Assembly: GCA_049970095.1 (NCBI GenBank)
Contig: JBMFNP010000001.1
Span: 18,912 to 82,911, forward strand
DNA: 64,000 nt
Direction: 5' to 3'
Origin: Thermoplasmata archaeon
GTDB taxonomy: Archaea > Thermoplasmatota > Thermoplasmata > Lutacidiplasmatales > SKW197
The notes under the pieces are model-generated. The model saw nothing but the letters and a program-made list of their open reading frames with translations, made no database searches and had not been told where the DNA came from. Of this stretch, positions 3,001 to 63,111 are shown in pieces. Both the position numbers and the translations under genes were made by a program. Position 1 is the stretch's first letter; every line of letters begins with the position of its first letter.

Positions 3001-4376
3001 TTAGGCTGCGAAAGGGCATGCAGCACACTCTCCAGTTCTTTCTTTTTAAGGTGATGGTAGGCATATGCCCTCTTCAGAATTTTCAGGGCTTCCTTTATCT
3101 TCCAGGTTCTGTGAATTCCCATTCCAATTAACACCTGTGCAAGCACATCTAAAGAGTTCACTGGAATTTCTACATGGTCCAGTTCTCTCCTTTCAATCTT
3201 TTCAATTATTGTGAAACATTCTAGAAAATCCAGGAGGTCTGTGGAAATAAAATAACCCATAGATATGCCGCCCAGTGTGTGTCCTGCCCTTCCAAATCTT
3301 TGGATTGCCTTGGAAATTGATTTTGGAGAAGAGATTTGTATTATACAGTCAACGCTGCCGATGTCAATTCCAAGTTCAAGTGAAGTAGAAGTCACTACAG
3401 CCCTCAATTCTCCTTTCTTTAAACTATCTTCCGTTTCCAGGCGTCTTTTTCTGCTCAAACTTCCATGGTGTGCATCAATGGCAGTTATGCCAAGCCCCCT
3501 CAGAACTTGCACAAGTTCTTCTGTGTGTTTCCTTGTGTTTGTGAAAATCATTACTGTGCGATGACGGTTGATAATCTCAGCACAGATTTTTGCGATCAGA
3601 AGATTTGCTTCTGCCCTTGGTTTGTTTTCTATGCCTGGCTGGTAGATTATCTGGATTTCATACTCTCTGCTGGTGTCTAAATTGAGAATTTCTACTCGTC
3701 TGGGTTTTCGGGCTGAAAAGCCTCCAAGATATTTTGCAATTTCTTCAATAGGGGACTGGGTGGCTGAGAGACCGATACGCACAAAACCTGGGGAGAGCTC
3801 CTCCAGGATTTCCAGTTCTGCAGAAAGCAAGGTTCCTCTTTTGCTGGCACAGAGTTCATGGATTTCATCAAGAATTACATATTCCACCTTATTTAGGTGT
3901 TCCTGGAATCTCCTTGAGTTTAACAGAATTGTGAAGGATTCTGGGGTGGTGATCAGAATGTGTGGTGCATTTTTTAGCATCTTGATTTTTTCTTTTTGAG
4001 GTGTGTCTCCAGTGCGCACTGAAACTCTTATGTTTCCCTCTAGCCCCATCTCTTCAAGGGGTAAAATAAGGTTTTTCCTTATGTCATTAGCCACTGCTTT
4101 GAGCGGAGAAATGTAGATGCAGTATACTCTATTTTCAAGTTTTCCCTTTTCATTGAGCGCTGCAAGATTGCTTAAAATTCCGAGGAATGCACTAAGTGTC
4201 TTGCCAGAACCCGTGGGGGCGCACACCAGCACATTTTTTCTATTCAGGATTCGCGGAATTGCCTGAATTTGTGGTTCGGAGAGTTTTCCATACTTTGATT
4301 TGAACCAGTTTCCAACATGGGGATGCAGCATTTGAATTATTATTTCCGATTGTTGTTCCACCACCACTGTGCCCAT
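1..4376 (-). CDS. lhr: Lhr-like large ATP-dependent (DEAD/DEAH-box) helicase, C-terminal end outside window (partial)
   Basis: I translated the minus strand in the frame whose codon first positions are 4376, 4373 and so on. It gives MGTVVVEQQSEIIIQMLHPHVGNWFKSKYGKLSEPQIQAIPRILNRKNVLVCAPTGSGKTLSAFLGILSNLAALNEKGK (Walker A/motif I). Further down it gives ...GELRAVVTSTSLELGIDIGSVDCIIQISSPKSISKAIQRFG (helicase C-terminal motifs). The frame stays open to position 1 with an Lhr-type C-terminal extension. It is not in the supplied ORF track, presumably because no stop codon lies inside the window. Confidence 0.85.
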   Translation of the reverse strand, partial: MGTVVVEQQSEIIIQMLHPHVGNWFKSKYGKLSEPQIQAIPRILNRKNVLVCAPTGSGKTLSAFLGILSNLAALNEKGKLENRVYCIYISPLKAVANDIRKNLILPLEEMGLEGNIRVSVRTGDTPQKEKIKMLKNAPHILITTPESFTILLNSRRFQEHLNKVEYVILDEIHELCASKRGTLLSAELEILEELSPGFVRIGLSATQSPIEEIAKYLGGFSARKPRRVEILNLDTSREYEIQIIYQPGIENKPRAEANLLIAKICAEIINRHRTVMIFTNTRKHTEELVQVLRGLGITAIDAHHGSLSRKRRLETEDSLKKGELRAVVTSTSLELGIDIGSVDCIIQISSPKSISKAIQRFGRAGHTLGGISMGYFISTDLLDFLECFTIIEKIERRELDHVEIPVNSLDVLAQVLIGMGIHRTWKIKEALKILKRAYAYHHLKKKELESVLHALSQPKTGRVDYHAKLEEFTTRRSAATYFYENVGTIPQEQNYQVFDEYGEHLGTLSEKFAEFLKPGDSFILGARVYDFVRRSSSKIFVKESTQKHATVPSWVGEINARTPELSRAIGETLEMLSQMDEPNLKKYLSRRCANEESVMYILTMIKKQKELGMPGNKKILVEWVEEEGRIASVVLSIAGRKVNEAVARYIASKLNLPCEMIVEDNGFAILTEDRIFLEALPNAEVFTTSMEKLIRNSDIFLTRFKQSAIRSFLILRNLRGKRASSFRISRQMESLLEKIHQKHPIYIEAMRESLYETLDLPNAVNFLERIKKRELQVYYGNGNNLSPFSLTLLNSVAKDSGFWIEKLRRIRKESEVKRYLLNEEILKFGFGSKEDALEFMQKYHVFHYPDENLEALVKEGKIHKGDVAGRKVYLYPDASSILEELKKGLKSKLLREICKYILTMPATAEEVATMLGVGHRDVEKTFQELLEDGNIVPVIVNGNEKFLSAPFLEFVLAKTSEYISRAEMDSRISAAVFGVKNIDECFQNFLGIRDPYVLFVRGLEKNWHPDDVLYGKYIGGRSVFVHVSDIPLLQSIYSLPLTENEKKVWKMLARPMSFSELKKYAGISSLRETLDKLEIGVLLKKKDGDPVIYEALPLYPRISEAEEICIERIVKGFGAVSVDFLSRYLNLPFEKVDAIVNNLVTKHKIKRAKILGTERTVFFSDEKLNGKMPESILLSAHDPYLEHRWAEIAGMLSEAYNLVYVSKSALAAFVNCEVRDDFLQVHSIWLKEENYIHLPEIWNWLIKYAKYRDVSIVHLNKIGGKWATEFTTYFKQGFFKSGSAIIHSELPYIEKVFPFDEIFARVLVLQGIPKLSNDALTVIEKYFGVMNEEELLLRAMRFAHPEELKNIYYAYGLSGGGYFTEQQISILKAIKSYGFAEGIAEEMKEILSNLDKPKTADELYSSVSISHRRFRAVLGTMLKTNIVYEAGGGILKITPEHGFSRTEATEFFIKKLLE

Positions 4377-4424
4377 AAATCCCAGAACAATATACAAAGG
4401 AGGATATGAATTTTTTGCGAGCGA

Positions 4425-4612
4425 GGGGAGGGGGCAGAGCCCCCTCCCCTTACGGTCGGGGTTAACACCCTACGGTACCTGTGTTAAGGGGTATCTAAAG
4501 ATACCCCGAACGCACAAACCCTCACGAGGGGGTTGCACCCCCAAATTGCTCATTCGGTAGACGGGGCTTTGCCACTTACGGTCGGGTTGCCCTCTACACT
4601 ACCTGCATATTT
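4425..4612. ncRNA. candidate structured non-coding RNA (GC-rich island in AT-rich divergent intergenic region); identity unknown
   Basis: About 190 nt of locally high GC lie between the divergent helicase and flippase starts. It contains several perfect hairpins: GGGGAGGGGG-CAGAG-CCCCCTCCCC, GGGGTATC-TAAA-GATACCCC, GGGGG-TTGCA-CCCCC and TTAACAC-N12-GTGTTAA. It also contains an imperfect ~33-nt direct repeat (cttacggtcgggg.../cttacggtcggg...). I could not recognise RNase P, SRP or tRNA consensus motifs. Confidence 0.3.
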
Positions 4613-4674
4613 TCCAGAAAGCACCAGTGTTCCTCCACACAATTGCACGAGTTAACCTTTAATACCCGAATACA

Positions 4675-6213
4675 TTGGGCTCTCAAATGCTTGCAAGAAA
4701 AACAGTGTTTGTAATCTTGAAAGAAGGGATTGCAGGTATTCTGGGCTTTATCACACTGTTTTTTGTTGCCAGATTTATGGGGGCAGAACCCCTTGGAAGC
4801 GTGGGTTTCGCATTGGCATTTGTAAATGTATTTAATATCGTGGCTGACATGGGTTTTAATGCTGCCCATGTGAAAAGGATGTCTGAAGGAAAGACACCAG
4901 AAAACTGTATTGCAGTCTATATCAGATTTAAAACCATACTCACAGTTGCAGCACTCGGCATTCTATTGCTAGTGCTTCTTGCTTTTGAGTTGCTGAAAAT
5001 ACAGTTTTATGACTCCACATACCCCGAAGTAATTTACATAATGCTCGGGTACTTCCTTCTTACCCAGATATTGTCAATCCCGAAATACACATTTGACGCC
5101 CGTCTCCAGATATACCGCGGGCAAATCGCTGCACTCGCTGGTGCAATTGGAAAAGACCTGCTTGTCATAAGTGCATCAGTGATAATGGCTGTGGGCACAT
5201 ACACCACATTTCAGAGAAGCATTGCACTTGCATGCGGGTATGTAATTGAAGTTTTAATTACAGCAATCATTCTCTATATTTTCTTTATTCGTAATGAAAA
5301 AATTGGAAAATTTGATAAAAATGTTGCAAAAACATACTTGAAATTCGCACTGCCGTTCTTTCCGATAGCGATCTTTACAATACTTTCTGTGAGTGCAGAC
5401 AGATTGACAATTGGTTATTTCTGGGATGCAAGAGAGGTTGGATATTACACAGCAGTCCAGCAGATTGCCAACATGCTTCTGGTAATCCAGAGTGCTACAA
5501 CCCTTGTGCTTTTTCCTGCAATTTCATCAGCTCATGCTAAAGGAAATAGAGAAGAAATTGTTAGATTAAGCAGTGAAGCCATCAGATACATACTCATTAT
5601 TCTGATACCCGTAGGTGCAGCAATCACTGTTTTTAGTGCGGGAATCATCCATGTGATTCTGAGTGATGAGTTTATTGTAGCAGAATACTGCTTCATATAC
5701 CTCACCTGGTATTTCATACTGGTCTCTCTAGCCAGTACTGCAGGAACAACGATTGGAGGTATGGATAGACCTGAACTTGGTGCAAAAATCACATTCGTTT
5801 CTGCGATTTCAAACATCGTTCTAAACTTCATGTTTGTGCCGCTCTGGGGGGCAACAGGTGCCGCAATAGCAACACTTATTTCAGGAGTTGTTTACTTCAC
5901 TCTGGTGAGATACTTTTCAAGAAAAATTCTTGGTTTCAACATATTTGGTTTTAGAAACCTGAAGACAGTTTTCGCAGGTATCCTTACTATTTTAGTGTTT
6001 TATGGCATAAAGATTATGTATTTTTCAAAGGTTGATGAGTTTAGATGGTACTCTCTGATTTTACTGCTAGGGGGTGTTGTGGGTTTGTTTGTTTTTATAC
6101 TCTGGCTTATTGGAGAGTTTGGCAGGAAAGAATTTGAATTTTTCGTGAAGAGCTTGCACATCGGAGAAATGCGAAAGGGAATTTTGGAAGAACTCCGTAC
6201 AAAGAATAATTAG
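4675..6213 (+). CDS. polysaccharide/oligosaccharide flippase (MOP superfamily, Wzx/PST family)
   Basis: 512-aa polytopic membrane protein (~12-14 hydrophobic helices) with the typical Wzx N-terminus (…LKEGIAGILGFITLFFVARFMGAEPLGSVGFALAF…). The true start may be the internal Met (MLARK). Confidence 0.7.
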   Translation: MGSQMLARKTVFVILKEGIAGILGFITLFFVARFMGAEPLGSVGFALAFVNVFNIVADMGFNAAHVKRMSEGKTPENCIAVYIRFKTILTVAALGILLLVLLAFELLKIQFYDSTYPEVIYIMLGYFLLTQILSIPKYTFDARLQIYRGQIAALAGAIGKDLLVISASVIMAVGTYTTFQRSIALACGYVIEVLITAIILYIFFIRNEKIGKFDKNVAKTYLKFALPFFPIAIFTILSVSADRLTIGYFWDAREVGYYTAVQQIANMLLVIQSATTLVLFPAISSAHAKGNREEIVRLSSEAIRYILIILIPVGAAITVFSAGIIHVILSDEFIVAEYCFIYLTWYFILVSLASTAGTTIGGMDRPELGAKITFVSAISNIVLNFMFVPLWGATGAAIATLISGVVYFTLVRYFSRKILGFNIFGFRNLKTVFAGILTILVFYGIKIMYFSKVDEFRWYSLILLLGGVVGLFVFILWLIGEFGRKEFEFFVKSLHIGEMRKGILEELRTKNN

Positions 6214-6218
6214 GGGTG

Positions 6219-6782
6219 TCATTTCGCTACAAATATATGGTACTTCTCCTTTGGATTTTCAAGTTCCAGTTTTATCCTATCTGCAATGAGCTTGTCAGGG
6301 GAATGAATTTTGACCCTGTTGCTGAGGTCCTCAAAGGATGTGAACTTTCCTTTCTTTCTTTCCTCCACAATCGCCCACATTGTCTTCTTCCCAAGACCAG
6401 GCAGGAGTTCAAGCATATGAAACCTTGTGGTAATTGGTTGCGCAGTATTGTAAAAATCTACAAACCGTTTTTCCTGTTCATGCACAATCTGGAGAATTAC
6501 ATAAGGGAGTTCCACCTGTGCAGTAGGTGTGAGTTCCTCATAACCGATTCTGCGTTTTATTTGGTGAATCTCTTTCCTTTGCTCTATGTTCTTTCCAATG
6601 TAAACACGGTCACCGATCGAGGGTGTTACATTCGGTTTGACAATAAGTTCAAACAATTTAAATTCCATATCCCCAATTGCAAGTGCCAGTGGTTCCCTTT
6701 TTATTCGCTTGTCATCAAATCTCCCCTGTGGCAAAAAATCAAGTATGTAGGCATACTCTTCATACCGTTCCATCAGCCTCAT
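6219..6782 (-). CDS. DUF655-family helix-hairpin-helix nucleic-acid-binding protein (conserved archaeal partner of rpoF/L21e)
   Basis: 187 aa with a C-terminal HhH motif (MLELLPGLGKKTMWAIVEERKKGKFTSFEDL). It sits immediately downstream of rpoF, as in the conserved archaeal cluster. The antisense ORF 6216..6830 is rejected. Confidence 0.7.
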   Translation of the reverse strand: MRLMERYEEYAYILDFLPQGRFDDKRIKREPLALAIGDMEFKLFELIVKPNVTPSIGDRVYIGKNIEQRKEIHQIKRRIGYEELTPTAQVELPYVILQIVHEQEKRFVDFYNTAQPITTRFHMLELLPGLGKKTMWAIVEERKKGKFTSFEDLSNRVKIHSPDKLIADRIKLELENPKEKYHIFVAK

Positions 6783-6797
6783 CTCCCAGATTTCTTT

Positions 6798-7124
6798 CTA
6801 CTCCTTCCCTGTGTATTTTTTCACAATTGAAAGAACGGTAGAAATTGTGTTCTCATCAAATGCCATCTCTTTCTGGAAAATTGCACGCACTTCTTCTGGT
6901 GTGGATGGTAAAAGGTCTGCCACCTTTACTGCATACTCCTCTTGAATTCCTGACTCCATAATTTTTTTAACAATTTCCACGGCAGTTTCCTTGCTTACTT
7001 TGGAAAAAGTGGTTGCGTGTTCCCTTGCCGTACTTGAAAATTTACCAAGTTCTCTTGTATTTGCTTCAGCATCTAGATATTCCTTTACCTCTGCGAGAGT
7101 AAGGTATTTTCGCATGAATTTCAC
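6798..7124 (-). CDS. rpoF: DNA-directed RNA polymerase subunit F (Rpb4 homologue)
   Basis: 108 aa. Its size, sequence character and position between L21e and DUF655 match the conserved archaeal L21e-rpoF-DUF655 arrangement. Confidence 0.7.
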   Translation of the reverse strand: MKFMRKYLTLAEVKEYLDAEANTRELGKFSSTAREHATTFSKVSKETAVEIVKKIMESGIQEEYAVKVADLLPSTPEEVRAIFQKEMAFDENTISTVLSIVKKYTGKE

Positions 7125-12044: not shown

Positions 12045-13952
12045 ATGGGTCTTGTCAGATTTGGGCCTCTTGTGCTTCGCTGGTGTTTGAACTGCAACAT
12101 ACCAGTAGTGGAACAGAGGGAGTGTGGAATCTGTAAATCGCAGACAGTTGAAGTTCAGGTAACCCCACCAGGGGATGTGAAAATTGCATTTAACAAGGAA
12201 CTTCGGCTTTTCAGAAAAATTCTTGATAAACAGTTTGGCAAGGGATGCGGAACAGCCCTTTTTCCAAGAAATAAACTGGTTGTCCTGAACCCTGTGCCCA
12301 GCATTGACAAGATGTATGAAGTTGTGATGGATGGGCAGGTGGTGGCATCTGTGAGGTATGATATAAAAAAAGGCTGGCAGACACTTCTGAGGATGGAAGG
12401 TGTTTTCAGAATTGAAAAAAATATCTCAAGGCAGTTTGTAGTAGCGGATGACGGTGCCATTGAACCCATCCTGAACGGAAGCAATCTGATGGCTGTCGGG
12501 GTGCTGGAAACATCAAATGATATTGCGGAAGGGGATGAGGTAATAGTTCTTGACAAAATGAAAAAGCCATTTGCAGTGGGTACTGCCAAGATGGATGCAC
12601 AAGAAATGAAATCTGCAATAAATGCGGGGGAAAAAAAAGGAGTGGCTGTGAAAGTGAGATGGAGAGAGGCATGGAGAAAAGCCAGAATCTTACAGGACAG
12701 AATTATAAGCTGGAAGCAGGTTGCAGAGGGGAGCAAAACTGCACTCCAGAACAAGGAACGGATGGCTTTGAATTTCATCCAGAATGTGGCAAAAAAATAC
12801 AACAAAGAAATCGCAGTTTCCTTTAGCGGAGGAAAAGATAGCTTGGTTACGCTTCTTCTCGTGCTGAAAGCAGGTTTTAAGCCCAGAATTTTATTTGTGG
12901 ACACGGGATTGGAACTTCCAGAAACCTTAGAATATGTGAAAAAAATTGCGGAAAAACTTGGAGTTGAAATAATAACAGAAAGTGCAGGAAACGCTTTCTG
13001 GGAAAACCTTGAGATGTTTGGTCCTCCTGGCAGGGACTTTAGATGGTGCTGCAAACTCTGCAAATTAGGTCCCACAACACGGCTAATCAGCAAAAATTTT
13101 CCAGATGGGGCTGTAGTATTTATCGGACAGAGGGTTTACGAGTCAGAACAGCGGGCACAGAAAGGCAACATATGGGAGAATCCTTGGGTCCCTGGACAGA
13201 TTGGTGCCTCCCCTGTGCAGTACTGGAATGCGCTTCACATCTGGCTCTACATTATGAAAGAAGGAATGGATGTGAATCCCTGGTATGCTGAAGGGATGGA
13301 AAGAATTGGGTGTTTTCTCTGCCCTGCATCCAGCATTGGGGACTTCATTATCATAGGCAAGAAATATGAAGGTTTAAAAAAATGGGAAAAGTACTTGAAG
13401 GAATATGCAGAAAAAAATGGTTTTGGAGAAGAATTCTTAAAGTATGCTCTCTGGAGATGGCGAAGGTTGCCCAGGGGAATAAAAGAATACATTGGAGAAT
13501 TTGAATTTGAAAGAAATGGAGCAGATGTGAAACTCAACCTTGCTGATGGTTATTCTCCATGCACCGGTGGTTATTCAATAGAAGGGGTTTACAATAGAAA
13601 ACTGGATATTGAAAGGATAGGAAACCTGCTGAATATCCTTGGAGCCTCAAAAATTGACAGAGAAAACAACCTTTGTGAGATAGAAGGCATCCAAATTTTT
13701 GCAGACGGTGCAGTAGTGGTGAAGGGAAATGATGAACAGGAGCTAAGAGCCAAGCTTACAAACATGCATTCCGTGGTAATGAAGGCACTTTTTTGCGTAA
13801 AATGTGGCATCTGTACAGGGAGATGTGCCCAGAAAGCAATCACACTTAAGGAAAAAGGCATCCACATAAATCCAGAACTCTGCATTCATTGTGGTAACTG
13901 TATCCAGCCATGTCCCGCACTGGTTTACAGGATGGATGCAGAAATCTGGTGA
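12045..13952 (+). CDS. PAPS-reductase-family PP-loop ATPase with N-terminal Zn-ribbon + PUA-like domain and C-terminal 2x[4Fe-4S] ferredoxin domain (paralogue 1)
   Basis: N-terminal Zn ribbon (WCLNCNIPVV…CGICKS). PP-loop AVSFSGGKDS. APS/PAPS-reductase-type cluster ligands RWCCKLCK…GCFLCP. C-terminal CVKCGICTGRCA…CIHCGNCIQPCP ferredoxin motifs. Confidence 0.8.
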   Translation: MGLVRFGPLVLRWCLNCNIPVVEQRECGICKSQTVEVQVTPPGDVKIAFNKELRLFRKILDKQFGKGCGTALFPRNKLVVLNPVPSIDKMYEVVMDGQVVASVRYDIKKGWQTLLRMEGVFRIEKNISRQFVVADDGAIEPILNGSNLMAVGVLETSNDIAEGDEVIVLDKMKKPFAVGTAKMDAQEMKSAINAGEKKGVAVKVRWREAWRKARILQDRIISWKQVAEGSKTALQNKERMALNFIQNVAKKYNKEIAVSFSGGKDSLVTLLLVLKAGFKPRILFVDTGLELPETLEYVKKIAEKLGVEIITESAGNAFWENLEMFGPPGRDFRWCCKLCKLGPTTRLISKNFPDGAVVFIGQRVYESEQRAQKGNIWENPWVPGQIGASPVQYWNALHIWLYIMKEGMDVNPWYAEGMERIGCFLCPASSIGDFIIIGKKYEGLKKWEKYLKEYAEKNGFGEEFLKYALWRWRRLPRGIKEYIGEFEFERNGADVKLNLADGYSPCTGGYSIEGVYNRKLDIERIGNLLNILGASKIDRENNLCEIEGIQIFADGAVVVKGNDEQELRAKLTNMHSVVMKALFCVKCGICTGRCAQKAITLKEKGIHINPELCIHCGNCIQPCPALVYRMDAEIW

Positions 13953-34281: not shown

Positions 34282-36135
34282 ATGCAAAAATCACATGAGC
34301 GCCGCACACAAATCTTCTGGTGCAGCAGGTGCAATGTTCCCATTCTCAGCGAAAAGTGTGGAATTTGTGGCAGCAATGGAAACAAGATTATGCTCCACCA
34401 TGGGAGAGAAATCAGGCCCGGGTTTGAGTACACGCTGAATAAAATCAACCAGATACTTGAAAAAAAGTATGGAGTGAAGGAGGCTTTGAATGGAAAACTT
34501 GTGCTTCTTCACAAAGTAGCAGGTATTGATAGGACAGAAGAAATAATTGTTGATGGAAAGATTTTTGGTACATTTTCCTACATACCTGAAGAGAGGGAAT
34601 TTCAGATTTTTCTGAGAAGTTACGGCGCTGCCTATCTGCGGGGGAAGGGAGCACATAAAAATATAGTAACTGTAAATGAGAAAGCACTGGAGAGACATCT
34701 GAAAAACACATGGATTTTTGCAGAGGAACTACTGGATATTGCAGAGATTTCTCCACATCAGGACATTATTCTCTCCATAGGTAAATACACAGGTGTAGGA
34801 ATCCCTAAATTCCATAGTAGGGAAAAAATTCCAAAAAAGTGCATAAAGGTAAGGGATATTGGGGTCTGTGAATTCCAGGAGAACAACCCTGATTTTCACA
34901 CGATAGTAAAGGCAAATGCAGATTATATTGATATTCTTGAAAAAACAGCAATATCGGAAATAAAAAGGACGCTGATGCAACATAAAAATATGAAAATTGC
35001 TGTATCTTTCAGCGGAGGTAAAGATAGTGCAGTAGCATTTCATCTTCTCAGCAAAGTGACAAGCCAGTTTGATGTTATTTTCGTGGACACAGGTCTTGAA
35101 TTTCCTGAGACGGTAGAATATGTGAAAAAAATGGCTAAGGGAAAGCCTCTCTTCATTCTGAAACCCGAACACTCATTCTGGGATCTTGTGGATTCCATGG
35201 GACCACCAGCAAAGGATTACAGATGGTGCTGCAAGGTATGCAAGTTAGCACCAGTTGCCAGCCATGTAGGTAAATATGGAGAAATTCTAACTGTTGAGGG
35301 TAGAAGAAGGGCTGAGTCCTTTGCAAGAGAGAAAATAAATTTGATTGAAAAAAATCCGTTTGTGCCAGGGCAAATACTCGTGAACCCCATAAGAAACTGG
35401 TGTGCATTTGAGATCTGGCTATACATTCTAAAAGAACATATTCCAGTGAATCCGCTTTACTTCCATGATTTTGAAAGAATTGGGTGCTATCTCTGCCCCT
35501 CTGCACATGCCTGTGAATTTGATGAGGTTGCCTCTCTCCATCCAGAAATGTATGAGCGCTGGCAGAATTATCTAAAATTTTGGGCTGAAAAAAATGGAAT
35601 GGACGAAGATTACTGGAGAAAAGGTTTATGGCGATGGAAAACTCCACCGAGGAAAATCAGGAGAGAGAAAAGCTGGGAGGAGAAAAGAAATATTCACATC
35701 AAGGAAAGCATCACATGCAATGGAGAATATTTGATTGATGGGAACTTCAATACTGGGTTGAGCCAGATAGAAATCGGAAATGCACTGGGAATCCTGGGAG
35801 AAATGAGATATCTTGAGAGCACTGGCACAATTATGATAAAGCTCAGAAAATCTAGAATTCTATTTTTTGCAAACTCTGATTTCTCTGTAGTCTCAACTAA
35901 CCGTGAGGAGGGAAGAAAACTTCTTGTAAAGATTATCCAGCAATTGCTGAGGGGGATGTTCTGCACATCCTGCATGATCTGCAAAAGGGCATGCCCAGTA
36001 GGGTGCATAGATATAAGGGATGGAAAACCAGAGTACAACCTTCAGAAATGCAAAAAATGTGGGCATTGTATTGAGGCGTGTGTTGTGGCGAGATACTGGG
36101 ACAAGCGGATTGCACTTGTTTTTTCCCACACATAA
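34282..36135 (+). CDS. PAPS-reductase-family PP-loop ATPase with N-terminal Zn-ribbon + PUA-like domain and C-terminal ferredoxin domain (paralogue 2)
   Basis: WCSRCNVPILSEKCGICGS Zn ribbon, AVSFSGGKDS PP-loop, RWCCKVCK…GCYLCP, and C-terminal CTSCMICKRACP…CKKCGHCIEAC. About 50% identical to 12045..13952 in the catalytic core. Start chosen at the Met aligned with paralogue 1 (track ORF begins at 34243). Confidence 0.8.
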   Translation: MQKSHERRTQIFWCSRCNVPILSEKCGICGSNGNKIMLHHGREIRPGFEYTLNKINQILEKKYGVKEALNGKLVLLHKVAGIDRTEEIIVDGKIFGTFSYIPEEREFQIFLRSYGAAYLRGKGAHKNIVTVNEKALERHLKNTWIFAEELLDIAEISPHQDIILSIGKYTGVGIPKFHSREKIPKKCIKVRDIGVCEFQENNPDFHTIVKANADYIDILEKTAISEIKRTLMQHKNMKIAVSFSGGKDSAVAFHLLSKVTSQFDVIFVDTGLEFPETVEYVKKMAKGKPLFILKPEHSFWDLVDSMGPPAKDYRWCCKVCKLAPVASHVGKYGEILTVEGRRRAESFAREKINLIEKNPFVPGQILVNPIRNWCAFEIWLYILKEHIPVNPLYFHDFERIGCYLCPSAHACEFDEVASLHPEMYERWQNYLKFWAEKNGMDEDYWRKGLWRWKTPPRKIRREKSWEEKRNIHIKESITCNGEYLIDGNFNTGLSQIEIGNALGILGEMRYLESTGTIMIKLRKSRILFFANSDFSVVSTNREEGRKLLVKIIQQLLRGMFCTSCMICKRACPVGCIDIRDGKPEYNLQKCKKCGHCIEACVVARYWDKRIALVFSHT

Positions 36136-40490: not shown

Positions 40491-40548
40491 ACCCCCTGCT
40501 GCAATTACAGAAATAAGAGGTGCAGGTTGTAAGGTGGAAGAAGTGAGT

Positions 40549-40678
40549 GGGAAACCCTAACTTTGGTTTCTAATAATCTCAGCCAGGAAACCGAGAGCCT
40601 GCCAGATAGTAATGGTAAGACCTAAGTCCAAAATTTTGAATTTTCAAACAAAACTTATGTTTCTCGGTGCTGGCAAGG
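40549..40678 (+). repeat. copy A of a ~135-bp element, inverted relative to copy B at 62974..63111; contains palindrome TTTGAATTTTCAAA (40635..40648)
   Basis: gggaaaccctaactttggtt…tctaataatctcagccaggaaaccgagagcctgccagatagtaatggtaagacctaagtccaaaattttgaattttcaaacaaaactt… is nearly identical to the reverse complement of 62974..63111. Differences are one 12-nt indel plus about 3 substitutions. Confidence 0.85.
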
Positions 40679-59418: not shown

Positions 59419-60279
59419 TCACATTTTTCCAGCACGCTGGAGAATTATTAACTCCTCTGTGGTAATCTTTTTACCACTCAGAAACTTCTGGTAGATCTCT
59501 TCTGCCTGCTTATCACTGTCAGATTTTGCTTCTCTTCTGGTTTTCTGCCTCAGTGCATGCACCATTTTTTCAAGGTCATGGATTTCTCTTATTTTTTCCA
59601 GATGCTTTCTGTGTGCCTCATCTGCTTCAAGTTTTGCCTTCACAAATTTTTCTTGGGCTTCATCAGCCTGTCTTCTGATGTCATCAGCCTTTGAATAGAG
59701 TTCTACCATCTTTTCATGTTCAGACTGGGCTATCTCAGCATACTCATTTACCAGCTTATGATGACGCTCTGCTTCCTCCTTTGCCTGTTCATACTCCCGC
59801 ACAAGTGCCTTTATTTCTGGATCTTCTTCAATTTCCTTTTCTCTCTTTTTTATCTCTGCCTGGATTCTTGCAATTGATTTTATGAGTTCCTCTTCCTTCT
59901 CTCTAGATAGCACTGAAGTCATCTGTTTGAACTCCAGCTCTTTAAGTTCCTTTCGCAATTTGGCAATGGAATCACCATTCTTCGGAATCTTCTTTCGTTT
60001 TGCATATCGGATTTTATCTGCCAGCTCAAATGTCTTTTTATTCCACTTCTCCCTCTCCATCTTCTCTTCCTTTACCTTGTTATTATATTCTTCCCGCTTC
60101 TTTTTGTGCTCATTTGCAGCATCTGCTAGTTTCTTTGCTTCATTGTTTAACCTGTCTCGCTCTTCTACCCATTTCCTGGCTTCATCATTTAACCTATCTC
60201 TTTCTATCCTGTATTTTTCTGCTTCTGCATTTAGATTCTGAATCTTTTTTTCCAATTCGTGAAGCACTTCATCGGGCAT
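59419..60279 (-). CDS. archaeal coiled-coil protein (Lys/Glu-rich, COG1340-like)
   Basis: 286 aa of almost uninterrupted heptad-like K/E/R-rich sequence. Real, since it sits downstream of the STAND gene on the same strand; the antisense ORF 60000..60788 is low-complexity. Confidence 0.6.
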   Translation of the reverse strand: MPDEVLHELEKKIQNLNAEAEKYRIERDRLNDEARKWVEERDRLNNEAKKLADAANEHKKKREEYNNKVKEEKMEREKWNKKTFELADKIRYAKRKKIPKNGDSIAKLRKELKELEFKQMTSVLSREKEEELIKSIARIQAEIKKREKEIEEDPEIKALVREYEQAKEEAERHHKLVNEYAEIAQSEHEKMVELYSKADDIRRQADEAQEKFVKAKLEADEAHRKHLEKIREIHDLEKMVHALRQKTRREAKSDSDKQAEEIYQKFLSGKKITTEELIILQRAGKM

Positions 60280-60336
60280 ATGTGTTCCTCTTTAGAAGTG
60301 TAAAGCACCTATACTTTCACTTATTTATAATTGTTT

Positions 60337-62937
60337 CTATCTGCACTCTGCACTCAAACTTCCTCCAAATTTTTTCACTATTTCTGCCATTGCTTCCTCA
60401 ACCTCACTCTCAATACCGATTTTTGCAGCAACTTTCCGTGCCTCCTCTATTGCCTCCATGTATTTTTCCTTATCTCCCTTCTCTGCGTAAAGTTCTGCAA
60501 TGTCTATCTGGTTGTATACAAACATCCACTTATTTCCTGTCTTATTACACAGATGCTTTGCCTCCAGATACTCTGCCAGCGCCTTTTCAAACTCATTATT
60601 TTCAAAATATACATTCCCAAGATTGTTCTTTGAGATTGCCATACCATCCAGGTCGTGAATTCTTTTCTTCAGTTCGATACTCTTCTCAAGGATTTCCCTT
60701 GCATTTTCAAAATCCTCAAGTTCATAATACACCATTCCAAGATTGTTGTAAACAAGTGAAAGTCCATAGTAATCCTTTTTCCTCATGAAAATCTCCTCGC
60801 TTTTCCTCAGATAATCCATGCTTTCAGAATATCTCCCTTCATAGTAAAGAATCGCCCCAATACGGTTATAGGCACGGGCAATTTCAACATCCATATTGTA
60901 CTTCTCAAACACCCCAATTGCTTTCTTCTGAGCCTCAATTGCTTCGGCATATCTTCCACATCTTTCATGAATATAACCCTCAGTTGCCAGTGCTTTACCC
61001 ATCTCCAGATTTTTCTCGTCCTCCGGCAGTTTTTCAAATTCTTCAAATGCAACATTTATCCTTTCAAGTGCTGCAGCATGTTCCCCCATTTTTAGCAGTA
61101 CCTCTGCAAGTGCAAGATAACCCCTTCCCTTCTCCAGTGCATTCTCACCAGCCAGATTAATTTTTTCCTCAATCTTATCAGCTGCCTCAACAAACAGCCC
61201 TGATGATATCAATATTTCCACAATTTTTTCAAGTACATCAAGTGCAATCTTTTTTTCCTGGACATTGCACTTATCCAGCACATCATACAATCTCTGCAAG
61301 ATCTCTATGGCTTCTGTGTATGCAAATCTTTCTGCAAGTTTTTCACCTGCAGCAAACCCGTACTCTTTCAACTTGTCTATTCGCCCAGCTTTCAGATAAT
61401 GATACACCATAACCAGCATTTTATCAGCATCACCTTTTTGATATTCCTCCTCAAAAATTTTACCTGCAATCTCATGAAGTGCCGTTCTCAATTCCTCTCC
61501 TAACTCATTGTAGACTACTTCGCGGATTCTTGAGGGCTCAAATTTATAAGTGTTCTTTTCATGCCTTAACAACCCATAAGCCTTCTCAATTTTTGATAAA
61601 ATCCGCAGAACAGTTACCCTGTCCATTCCAAGCATTTTTTCCAGAACATTCGCAGTGAATTCATTACCTAGAACACTAGCGCTCTCAAGAATTTCAATCT
61701 CCTCCTCATTTAGCCTGGTGAGCTTCTCCTTTATGATTTCGTAAACTCTCTCTGGCACTTTTATCTCTTTTTTGTCGTATAACCAGACGTTTCCTTCTTT
61801 TCTTAGGAATTCTTTGTCGCTCAGATACTTCAAAACCTCAATAATAAACAGAGGATTTCCTTCCGTCTCCGCATAGATTGTGTCTTTAAATTCCTGATTT
61901 ATATAACCCTCTAGCACACTTTCAATCAATTGACATACACCTTCTTTATCCAGTGGTTCAAGCGTCAAAATATCCAGCAACTCTTCCCCTCTCATGGCAT
62001 TGATCAATTCAGAAAGGGATTGCCCTCCTGCTGCCTTGATCTCATCACTTCTTACTGTTCCAAAAATTCCGATGCGCTCACTCTGGATGTCTCTCGCAAT
62101 ATAATGCAGAAGTGAGAGAGTAGAGGAGTCTGCCCACTGAAGGTCATCCATTATAATTACAACTGGCTTCTCCCGTGAAATCCTTTTGATTCCAAGAAGT
62201 ACATTCTGGAATACACCAATTTTTCTTGTGGAACTGTCTATTCCAAGCATACTTCCATCATATTTCTCGCTTTCTACAAGGGCTTTCAGATAGTGCTGAA
62301 GGATATCATTCTCTTTATCATTGTCATTGCCTACCTCTTCAACTTTTGACAGAATCGCTTTCATATCCTCTATCAGATACTCGTTCTCAATCCCATCAAC
62401 AAGGGCTACAAGGTTTATTTTTTTTCCAGGGAGATTTATGATTGTGAAATCCCCATGTCTCATCACTCCAAGTTTTCCTTCTTCAACTTCATCTGCTCTC
62501 CCAGAAATTTGGTTCATAGAATCCTTTATAAAATTTTCCACGGCAGTTACCATACCCAGAAATATATCGGAATCAATATTCTGGTTTTTTCTTTCATACT
62601 TCGCTAAAATTATTCCTCCCTTATTTACAGCATACAAAGCATCCAGAGAGGGGATACTCTCAGCAAGAAGATATTCCTTGTTTATTTCTTTCAACATCTC
62701 ATAAATAGGAGTGAATGGTGCCATCCCAGGTACACATTTTCCAGACATCACATTAACTCCTCTGCTCTCACAGATTTTTCGGAGTTCTTCCAGAAGCCGT
62801 GTTTTTCCAACACCACCCTCCCCGAGCAAGAACACGGTTCTTCCCCTGCCCTTTCCTACATCATCAACAAAATGCTCACAGAATTTGAGCTCTTTTCTCC
62901 TGTCAACAAACTCGGGTGGCAACTTCAGGATGCTCAT
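60337..62937 (-). CDS. STAND-class NTPase (AAA_16-type) with ~150-aa domain inserted between Walker A and Walker B and C-terminal TPR-repeat array
   Basis: Walker A LLGEGGVGKTRLL near the N-terminus. Walker B VVIIMDDLQWAD. Insert …GDFTIINLPGKKINLVALVDGIENEYLIEDMKAILSKVEE…. At least 8 TPR-like repeats (…AYNRIGAILYYEGRYSESMDYLRKS…). Confidence 0.8.
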   Translation of the reverse strand: MSILKLPPEFVDRRKELKFCEHFVDDVGKGRGRTVFLLGEGGVGKTRLLEELRKICESRGVNVMSGKCVPGMAPFTPIYEMLKEINKEYLLAESIPSLDALYAVNKGGIILAKYERKNQNIDSDIFLGMVTAVENFIKDSMNQISGRADEVEEGKLGVMRHGDFTIINLPGKKINLVALVDGIENEYLIEDMKAILSKVEEVGNDNDKENDILQHYLKALVESEKYDGSMLGIDSSTRKIGVFQNVLLGIKRISREKPVVIIMDDLQWADSSTLSLLHYIARDIQSERIGIFGTVRSDEIKAAGGQSLSELINAMRGEELLDILTLEPLDKEGVCQLIESVLEGYINQEFKDTIYAETEGNPLFIIEVLKYLSDKEFLRKEGNVWLYDKKEIKVPERVYEIIKEKLTRLNEEEIEILESASVLGNEFTANVLEKMLGMDRVTVLRILSKIEKAYGLLRHEKNTYKFEPSRIREVVYNELGEELRTALHEIAGKIFEEEYQKGDADKMLVMVYHYLKAGRIDKLKEYGFAAGEKLAERFAYTEAIEILQRLYDVLDKCNVQEKKIALDVLEKIVEILISSGLFVEAADKIEEKINLAGENALEKGRGYLALAEVLLKMGEHAAALERINVAFEEFEKLPEDEKNLEMGKALATEGYIHERCGRYAEAIEAQKKAIGVFEKYNMDVEIARAYNRIGAILYYEGRYSESMDYLRKSEEIFMRKKDYYGLSLVYNNLGMVYYELEDFENAREILEKSIELKKRIHDLDGMAISKNNLGNVYFENNEFEKALAEYLEAKHLCNKTGNKWMFVYNQIDIAELYAEKGDKEKYMEAIEEARKVAAKIGIESEVEEAMAEIVKKFGGSLSAECR

Positions 62938-62973
62938 TGCTGCATGTAATTACACCTGAGTATTAATTTCTTT

Positions 62974-63111
62974 CTGAGAACCGAGGAACACAAGTTTTGT
63001 TTGAAAATTCAAAATTTTTGGACTTAGGTCTTACCATTACTATCTGGCAGGCTCTCGGTTTCCTGGCTGAGATTATTAGATAAATCTCATCAACCAAAGT
63101 TAAGGTTTCCC
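62974..63111 (-). repeat. copy B of the ~135-bp element (inverted relative to copy A), in divergent promoter region between STAND ATPase and DUF2156 genes; palindrome TTTGAAAATTCAAA at 63000..63013
   Basis: Its reverse complement is cacacagggaaaccttaactttggtt[gatgagatttat]ctaataatctcagccaggaaaccgagagcctgccagatagtaatggtaagacctaagtccaaaaattttgaattttcaaacaaaacttgtgttcctcggttctcag. An AAATTAATA TATA-like box lies ~30 nt before ATG 62937. Confidence 0.85.

Follow-up and report, generated by a model that had tools for sequence, protein, structure and literature searches.

The closest described relatives of the protein considered here are the signal transduction ATPases with numerous domains (STAND) of the MalT, AfsR and LAL type, which combine a P-loop nucleotide-binding oligomerisation domain, a Walker B of the form hhhhDD-LQWAD, a sensor arginine, a GNPLF motif, a winged helix and C-terminal tetratricopeptide repeats (TPRs). 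In the MalT-type STANDs, ligand binding releases autoinhibition and is followed by ATP-dependent opening or oligomerisation. A gene in the 64,000-nucleotide (nt) stretch of a Thermoplasmata archaeon contig (JBMFNP010000001.1) that we analysed, hereafter the window, encodes an 866-amino-acid (aa) protein with all of these elements. Unlike MalT, AfsR and LAL proteins, it has no helix-turn-helix (HTH), SARP, kinase or cyclase effector, and it carries an insert of ~145 aa that places its Walker A and Walker B motifs ~220 aa apart, compared with ~100-127 aa. The predicted structure of the insert is that of a longin/Roadblock-fold domain, and in related genomes this domain is encoded beside Rab-like GTPase genes, which points to an undescribed ATPase-to-GTPase signalling link.

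For the insert itself, the comparison is with the Roadblock/LC7-MglB and longin platforms, among them MglB-MglA, Ragulator-Rag, Mon1-Ccz1, TRAPP, FLCN-FNIP and GATOR1. These are free-standing or terminally fused, whereas the insert forms a distinct sequence family and sits inside an ATPase; the GTPases linked to the insert family are Rab/Rup-like, with the G3 Asp present, unlike the MglA of the MglB-MglA pair. Rag/Gtr proteins and the Asgard GTPase-Roadblock/longin fusions also place a P-loop NTPase and a Roadblock/longin domain in a single polypeptide, but those are terminal fusions to a small GTPase, while here the NTPase is a STAND ATPase and the domain is internal. RuvBL1/2 (Rvb1/2, TIP49) likewise have a folded domain between Walker A and Walker B; this domain II is, however, an oligonucleotide/oligosaccharide-binding (OB) fold, and RuvBL1/2 are hexameric AAA+ proteins, not STANDs. 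Finally, the P-loop NTPases of the KAP family, said to be related to STANDs, reportedly have transmembrane helices inserted in the P-loop domain, in contrast to the globular longin domain predicted here.

The protein joins two known kinds of component, a STAND NTPase and a putative longin/Roadblock GTPase platform, in a family that is large but undescribed. Among regulators of small GTPases, longin and Roadblock domains are ancient, and models of the origin of eukaryotic trafficking and nutrient signalling give them a central place; their discussion has hitherto dwelt on the Asgard archaea and the MglA-MglB pair. What the locus reveals in Thermoplasmatota is a large, unnamed family of longin-like domains that forms part of STAND ATPases and is coupled, at the genomic level, to Rab-like GTPases.

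The inserted domain and its fold

The 866-aa protein matches AAA_16 with an E value of 6.6e-22, above the Pfam gathering score, and the match covers protein residues 10-286 while using profile positions 2-161 only, leaving ~115-145 extra residues inside the domain. Using the N-terminal 538 residues, we collected 95 relatives, whose alignment is the basis for comparing Walker spacing. For the window protein and the relatives nearest to it (P0001-P0008), the two motifs are separated by 220-227 aa, compared with ~100-127 aa for ordinary AAA_16 relatives; the block at ~88-232 is well conserved within the clade of the window protein and absent from the other AAA_16 relatives. A preliminary description, made from the DNA sequence alone, had proposed a STAND NTPase with a folded domain between Walker A and Walker B and a TPR array, which alignment, Pfam and AlphaFold2 models all bear out, and the insert sequence that it quoted is present in the protein. 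It had placed an insert of ~150 aa at residues ~100-250; the insertion is genuine, and its size and boundaries are corrected here to ~145 aa at ~88-232. We reject the alternative that the insert is ordinary AAA lid sequence, as the block is missing in ordinary AAA_16 relatives and is predicted to fold as an independent domain. The start codon of the open reading frame (ORF) is consistent with the homologues, and an identical 866-aa protein is recorded from the metagenome-assembled genome (MAG) GCA_049971275.1.

Modelled alone with AlphaFold2 from an eight-sequence alignment, the insert adopts a bb-a-bbb-a-a order of strands (b) and helices (a), with a predicted local distance difference test score (pLDDT) of 72 and a predicted template-modelling score (pTM) of 0.69. 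The same elements recur when the complete N-terminal module is modelled (480 residues; pLDDT 82.5, pTM 0.77), where the order of elements is b1 (34-39), P-loop, a1 (45-58), b2 (62-67), a2 (76-84), insert (88-232), a helix at 235-256 and b3 with Walker B (259-264); this order indicates that the insert is grafted between a2 and the helix leading into Walker B. The predicted five-stranded antiparallel sheet with bb-a-bbb-a(-a) topology is that of the longin/Roadblock fold. The topologies that separate longin from Roadblock domains are summarised in PMC10933270, and by these the insert is longin-like, because it has two C-terminal helices and no N-terminal helix. On the strength of the models, we assign the insert to the longin/Roadblock fold.

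The motifs of the insert comprise G108, R116, D122-x-D-I-F126-x-x-M129-x-x-x-V133-x-x-F136-x-x-D-S140, G182-x-E-N-E186-x-L188 and KYDG at 225-228. Conservation over 167 copies is high for F136 (99%), G182 (97%), G108 (96%), M129 (93%), R116 (92%), F126 (89%) and L188 (89%). Searches of the insert against Pfam, NCBIfam and PDB sequences returned noise or sub-threshold matches only. The only Pfam family matched by more than one member of the clade was Robl_LC7 (two of eight members, best E 0.022, below threshold), and one homologue (P0103) bears the label 'Roadblock/LC7/MglB family' from JGI, a COG-type label. A Foldseek search with the N-terminal model gave RuvBL1/2 as best matches, then Cdc6/Orc1, RFC and MalT (8bob), with TM-scores of ~0.3 (RuvBL ~0.31), as low as expected because the query is multi-domain.

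The GP motif of the longin GTPase-activating proteins (GAPs) was not matched, the family consensus having G108 and no Pro. In FLCN, NPRL2 and SMCR8, the GP motif lies at b2 and the catalytic arginine finger after a1 (PMC12290439). The sole highly conserved arginine of the insert, R116, lies at the end of b2, before a1, and was rejected on position as an FLCN-type arginine finger. Because R116 is off the finger position and the GP motif is absent, no GAP claim is made for the insert.

Around the insert, the full set of catalytic motifs is intact in sequence. The first part of the NTPase core is modelled with pLDDT 89-98 (helices at 14-28, 45-58 and 76-84, strands at 34-39 and 62-67), and G39, G42 and G44 of Walker A are near-invariant across relatives. 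D265, W268 and D270 of the Walker B region are invariant, and P258 and L266 near-invariant; the AlphaFold2 model places the Walker B strand at 259-264. The sensor-1 arginine (R296) and, within the GNPLF motif at 360-364, G360, N361, P362 and F364 are invariant or near-invariant, and helical and winged-helix elements occupy 297-480 of the model. Confidence over 233-480 is mostly 83-96 in the core and 57-78 toward the C-terminal end.

The C-terminal region is a TPR array, with Pfam matches to TPR_12 (1.3e-22), TPR_MalT (2.5e-9), TPR_2, TPR_8, TPR_10 and TPR_1 within residues ~605-850 and PDB sequence matches to TPR structures. The repeats extend to the C-terminus, and no domain precedes AAA_16, which starts at residue 10, in agreement with the preliminary description. 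Pfam recognised nothing else in the protein, and in particular no terminal effector domain (HTH, kinase, cyclase, death-fold, nuclease, protease or TIR) at either end. The best partial NCBIfam match is to the AAA_16-TPR part of a TOMM kinase/cyclase fusion protein (E 1.6e-39, far below the cutoff of that model), and the TPR regions of AfsR and FimS also match; these NCBIfam matches place the scaffold among signal-transduction STANDs. Of the functions suggested for the protein beforehand, a signal-transducing regulator fits best; on either side of the insert, the sequence is similar to the AAA_16-TPR module found in regulators of the kinase/cyclase/SARP/MalT type.

A large family linked to Rab-like GTPases

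A hidden Markov model (HMM) profile of the insert was searched exhaustively over representatives of 50% clusters and matched 3209 of them at E<=1e-3; the number fell to 925 at E<=1e-10 and to 85 at E<=1e-30. A word-indexed homologue search with the insert profile gave nine proteins, and scans of genomes and metagenomes, limited by a narrow peptide pattern, gave 18 and 11 loci, respectively. The family of STANDs with a longin domain is large and mostly from Thermoplasmatota: named sources are Thermoplasmata, Methanomassiliicoccales, MAGs labelled 'Thermoplasmatota' and 'Methanobacteriota', and one Hodarchaeales MAG. Most members carry the domain at residues ~90-240 of a protein of ~900-1050 aa, which is the architecture of the window protein. 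No Pfam model captures the longin-like family, public names for its members are only 'tetratricopeptide repeat protein', 'AAA family ATPase' and 'predicted ATPase', and full-text literature searches found no published description of a STAND with an internal longin domain.

There are often several paralogues per genome, sometimes in tandem. Four STAND-longin-TPR genes lie within 12.4 kb in one locus (L024, 27-12423) and two in another (L017, 2904-8529), which suggests a lineage-specific expansion of a sensor family. The domain also occurs outside STANDs: two or three copies are present in giant proteins of CARDB...DUF5915 type (P0096, P0133, P0143 and P0201; 1092-2171 aa), further copies in ~560-aa proteins with no Pfam match, and others at the C-terminus of polytopic membrane proteins (L036, 4018-5091; L041, 4459-5778), the second of which is encoded divergently beside a Rab-like GTPase gene.

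When the flanking ORFs of all homologue loci were clustered, two recurrent neighbours of the STAND-longin genes emerged, namely Ras-family GTPases of ~290 aa, matching Pfam Ras at E 1e-26 to 1e-35, and DUF835 proteins. The GTPase gene is directly adjacent in about seven distinct arrangements (L015/18/19/37/38, L017, L023, L021/25, L032, L040 and L042). In L015/18/19 and L037/38 it lies upstream on the same strand; in L017 (after the tandem STAND pair), L023 (5-nt gap), L032, L040 (21 nt) and L042 it lies downstream; and L021/25 has it twice, in a divergent GTPase-DUF835-GTPase operon. In a reciprocal test starting from the GTPase family, six diverse members on long contigs were sampled, and a gene bearing the domain adjoined five of them. 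Four of the six adjoin an AAA_16-TPR protein, all four with the insert (HMM E 1e-57 to 1e-62, Walker spacing 227). In the fifth locus (L041) the neighbour is a divergent, non-STAND polytopic membrane protein ending in the longin-like domain (E 6e-20), and in the sixth (L039) neither an AAA_16-TPR protein nor a domain-bearing membrane protein stands beside the GTPase. Taken together, the membrane protein and the STAND neighbours indicate that the GTPase link follows the longin-like domain itself and not the ATPase.

The ~290-aa GTPases have a Rab-like G1 (GDSAVGKT), a G3 of the form DxxGR, a G4 NKxD and a G5 SAK. The G3 thus has Arg at the position of the catalytic Gln of Ras and Rab, a Gln that is kept (DxxGQ) by both GTPases of the L021/25 operon. 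They form a large family of their own, mostly in Thermoplasmata and Methanomassiliicoccales, with a conserved C-terminal extension of ~110 aa that has no Pfam match. The GTPase of L042 is labelled Hodarchaeales by NCBI, and a second small GTPase of 181 aa, Arf/Rag-like, is encoded there at 2128-2673, ~0.6 kb upstream of the STAND-longin gene. Roadblock and longin dimers are established platforms for small GTPases (PMC10933270). Prokaryotic GTPases of the Rup type were never coupled to MglB (0 of 121; Wuichet and Sogaard-Andersen, PMC4316618), and those with no G3 Gln have been speculated to rely on an unidentified GAP acting in trans (PMC4316618).

DUF835 is classified as an inactivated-KaiC (iKaiC) output domain of archaeal response regulators (PMC5847659). 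A DUF835 gene adjoins the STAND-longin gene in L021/25 and L026/27 and lies at a distance of 2.6 kb in L010 and 7 kb in L001-4, so that several loci of the subclade to which the window protein belongs have DUF835 nearby. In L001 (1080-6148) and L002 (1082-6147), ~2-7 kb upstream of the closest orthologues (P0001 and P0002), a co-directional cluster encodes, in order, a protein with a Zn-ribbon and DUF835, an E2 (UQ_con), a protein of ~874 aa with no Pfam match and an E1 (ThiF). The C-terminus of the first of these looks ubiquitin-like by eye, ending in ...PEGGI, and the genes may together make up an archaeal system for ubiquitin-like conjugation with a tie to an iKaiC signalling protein.

Proposed mechanism and competing explanations

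We read the protein as a STAND switch that is gated by ATP and has as its output a longin platform for docking a GTPase, and put the probability of this reading at roughly 0.5. Ligand binding by the TPR array would release autoinhibition and license ATP-dependent opening or oligomerisation of the STAND, and oligomerisation could pair two inserts or make them accessible, so that a surface for GTPase binding would form in the ATP state only. Paired inserts are proposed as this surface because, in Roadblock and longin domains, it is the dimer that serves small GTPases as a platform. The ATP switch would thereby be coupled to the nucleotide state or the localisation of a Rab-like GTPase, acting as GAP, guanine nucleotide exchange factor (GEF) or scaffold; for the window copy, the partner would be encoded elsewhere, or signalling would run through DUF835-type proteins. 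A wider version, which we put forward only tentatively, is that the platform gated by the STAND switch is the missing GAP/GEF for the Gln-less Rab/Rup-like GTPases, forming an ATPase-to-GTPase relay in Thermoplasmatota, outside Asgard, with the same domain deployed on membrane proteins and giant surface proteins. If the genomic coupling is physical, the inserts would be candidate regulators for the Rup-type GTPases, previously without a known Roadblock partner (PMC4316618), an internal platform would replace the terminal effector as a new output route for STANDs, and simple two-gene pairs (L040 and L042) would lend themselves to biochemical tests.

Several findings weigh against the GTPase-docking switch. 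The 64-kb window contains neither a small GTPase gene nor a DUF835 gene. A neighbour-joining (NJ) tree of the N-terminal modules puts the window protein in one group with L001/2, L009 and L026/28, to which L010 is sister; none of these has an adjacent GTPase, and loci with one are scattered over the other major clade. The window protein therefore receives the GTPase link by transfer from paralogues that are ~30% identical, and it is from gene adjacency in those paralogues that we infer contact between insert and GTPase. In addition, the model of the insert alone is of moderate confidence, Pfam gives no Robl_LC7 match to the window insert, so that the sequence link to Roadblock proteins is sub-threshold, and the insert has no arginine finger at the position found in FLCN, NPRL2 and SMCR8. 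The conserved residues of the insert are nevertheless common to the whole family, window copy included.

A rival reading is that the insert works in cis only, either as a dimerisation or oligomerisation module or, like domain II of RuvBL1/2, as a lid on the protein's own nucleotide cycle; it would have no GTPase partner, and the adjacency in paralogues would reflect a shared pathway without contact. Besides the subclade with no GTPase neighbour, it can call on the obligate dimerisation of Roadblock and longin domains (PMC10933270), on the best Foldseek matches being AAA+ proteins whose Walker A and Walker B motifs are likewise separated by a regulatory domain, and on the tandem paralogue arrays (L017, L024), which would permit hetero-oligomers. 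Yet the domain adjoins a GTPase even on the membrane protein of L041, which is no STAND and thus ties the GTPase to the domain, and the adjacency includes overlapping stop and start codons (L042) and survives several rearrangements. On balance, we consider action in cis alone unlikely.

We find it distinctly improbable that the insert is a small-molecule or peptide sensor that would gate the ATPase allosterically alongside the TPR sensor. The profilin-like fold is related to GAF/PAS-like sensors, the position inside the NTPase domain would be ideal for allostery, and the polytopic membrane proteins (L036, L041) and the multicopy CARDB giants are contexts typical of sensor modules.

Neighbouring genes, promoter and upstream repeat

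The features of the locus, with the GTPase genes used as examples, are collected in Table 1.

Table 1. Coordinates of the STAND gene, its parts and the surrounding elements in the window, and of GTPase genes in homologue loci (numbered by locus).
Feature	Position	Strand	Basis
Whole gene: 866-aa STAND NTPase (AAA_16) with inserted longin/Roadblock-like domain and C-terminal TPR array	60337..62937	-	ORF, Pfam
NTPase core part 1, residues 1-87 (b1, Walker A, a1, b2, a2)	62677..62937	-	AlphaFold2
Walker A / P-loop GEGGVGKT, residues 39-46	62800..62823	-	Direct sequence reading
Inserted longin/Roadblock-fold domain (predicted), ~145 aa, residues ~88-232	62242..62676	-	Alignment, AlphaFold2
Walker B VVIIMDD, residues 259-265, followed by AAA_16-typical LQWAD	62143..62163	-	Sequence, alignment
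NTPase core part 2, helical and winged-helix domains, residues 233-480	61498..62241	-	Alignment, AlphaFold2
C-terminal helical/TPR sensor array, residues ~520-860	60358..61380	-	Pfam, PDB matches
Core promoter: BRE-like AGAAAG (62970-62975) and TATA box TTAATA (62961-62966)	62961..62975	-	Sequence, orthologue alignment
Repeat copy B, ~105-135 nt, abutting but excluding the core promoter	62977..63110	-	Alignment with copy A
Repeat copy A, inverted relative to copy B, intergenic	40540..40671	+	Alignment
DUF7121 coiled-coil gene, 286 aa (neighbour only)	59419..60279	-	Pfam DUF7121, 7.7e-42
Example ~290-aa GTPase genes	L015 4782-5666; L017 8531-9406; L023 8828-9703; L037-L042 6001-6876		
L042 pair, 4-nt overlap	STAND 3257-6004; GTPase 6001-6876		

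The coiled-coil gene 57 nt downstream had been suggested as a partner of the STAND protein. We reject this pairing: tblastn and blastp found no DUF7121 homologue within the 6-8 kb flanks of any of the 36 loci with STAND-longin homologues, and the DUF7121 gene has its own TATA-like TTATAAATA and a Shine-Dalgarno-like GAGG before its ATG. At the equivalent position in the closest informative orthologue (L026) lies a 292-aa gene, an HtpX-type M48 peptidase by eye, with no BLAST match to DUF7121. The other neighbours in the window (DUF72, a CBS pair, a ZPR1-like protein, an ABC permease-like protein and an LPG_synthase_C-like protein) are of housekeeping type. The further suggestion that the protein is the sensor/ATPase half of an antiviral STAND system (Avs/NLR-like), with the DUF7121 protein as effector or partner, is very improbable and was rejected. 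In its favour, several Avs-type sensors are likewise built from a STAND and TPRs, the family has expanded in particular lineages and forms tandem arrays (four copies in L024), and the GTPase-linked L040 stands beside toxin-antitoxin-like genes (PIN, MazE, HEPN/NTP_transf_2). Against it, PADLOC matched no defence system, giving generic TPR and weak Csa3 matches only, the protein has no nuclease, protease, TIR or other effector domain, the pairing with DUF7121 is largely refuted, and the recurrent partners of the family are signalling proteins.

Upstream of the STAND gene, the window and five orthologue loci (L001, L002, L009, L026 and L028, representing about four distinct orthologues, as L026 and L028 are near-identical) share an unchanged AGAAAG-N3-TTAATA whose distance from the ATG is nearly fixed, and the sequence flanking it has diverged among these loci. 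By sequence, this is a conserved promoter footprint consisting of a B recognition element (BRE) and a TATA box. The archaeal TATA box is positioned at about -26/-27. The centre of the one found here is ~26-27 nt upstream of the ATG (62937), so that a leaderless mRNA is predicted, as had been proposed; a scan for sigma-70 promoters and terminators was uninformative for archaeal DNA.

The repeat next to this promoter has two intergenic copies 22.3 kb apart that are 91-93% identical, with inverted-repeat arms of 85 nt (91%) and 42 nt (93%); copy B carries an extra ~18 nt relative to copy A. The palindrome TTTGAAaaTTCAAA occupies 63000-63013 in copy B, 63-76 nt before the ATG, and its one other occurrence is at 40635-40648; the palindrome TTTGAAnnTTCAAA, one per repeat copy, occurs twice in the window against 0.04 expected by chance. 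The preliminary description had placed a TATA-like box ~30 nt and this palindrome ~60 nt from the start, and both are there. Its claim that the gene is driven by a promoter within copy B does not hold: the last base of copy B matching copy A is 62977, leaving the conserved BRE/TATA outside the shared repeat, and neither the repeat nor the palindrome occurs upstream of the orthologues; in the homologue loci, the palindrome is matched within coding sequence only. No similar promoter follows copy A. The most that the repeat could contribute to the STAND gene is an upstream site specific to the window. The repeat has no Rfam or tRNA match, and its predicted structure is modest, with fold z-scores of -2.0 to -2.8 for the strand running toward the STAND gene and of -0.95 and -2.33 for the other strand; it could be an element like a miniature inverted-repeat transposable element (MITE), a small RNA or a site for a shared regulator.

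Two further features of the window were noted. Across the STAND gene, the plus strand of 60001-62000 shows very strong negative skews (GC skew -0.40, AT skew -0.22), which fit a purine-rich (Glu/Lys-rich) coding strand on minus. The segments 12889-13068 and 35075-35248 share direct repeats of 61 and 49 nt that are 73-79% identical, both at a spacing of ~22.18 kb, which suggests a pair of diverged paralogous genes.

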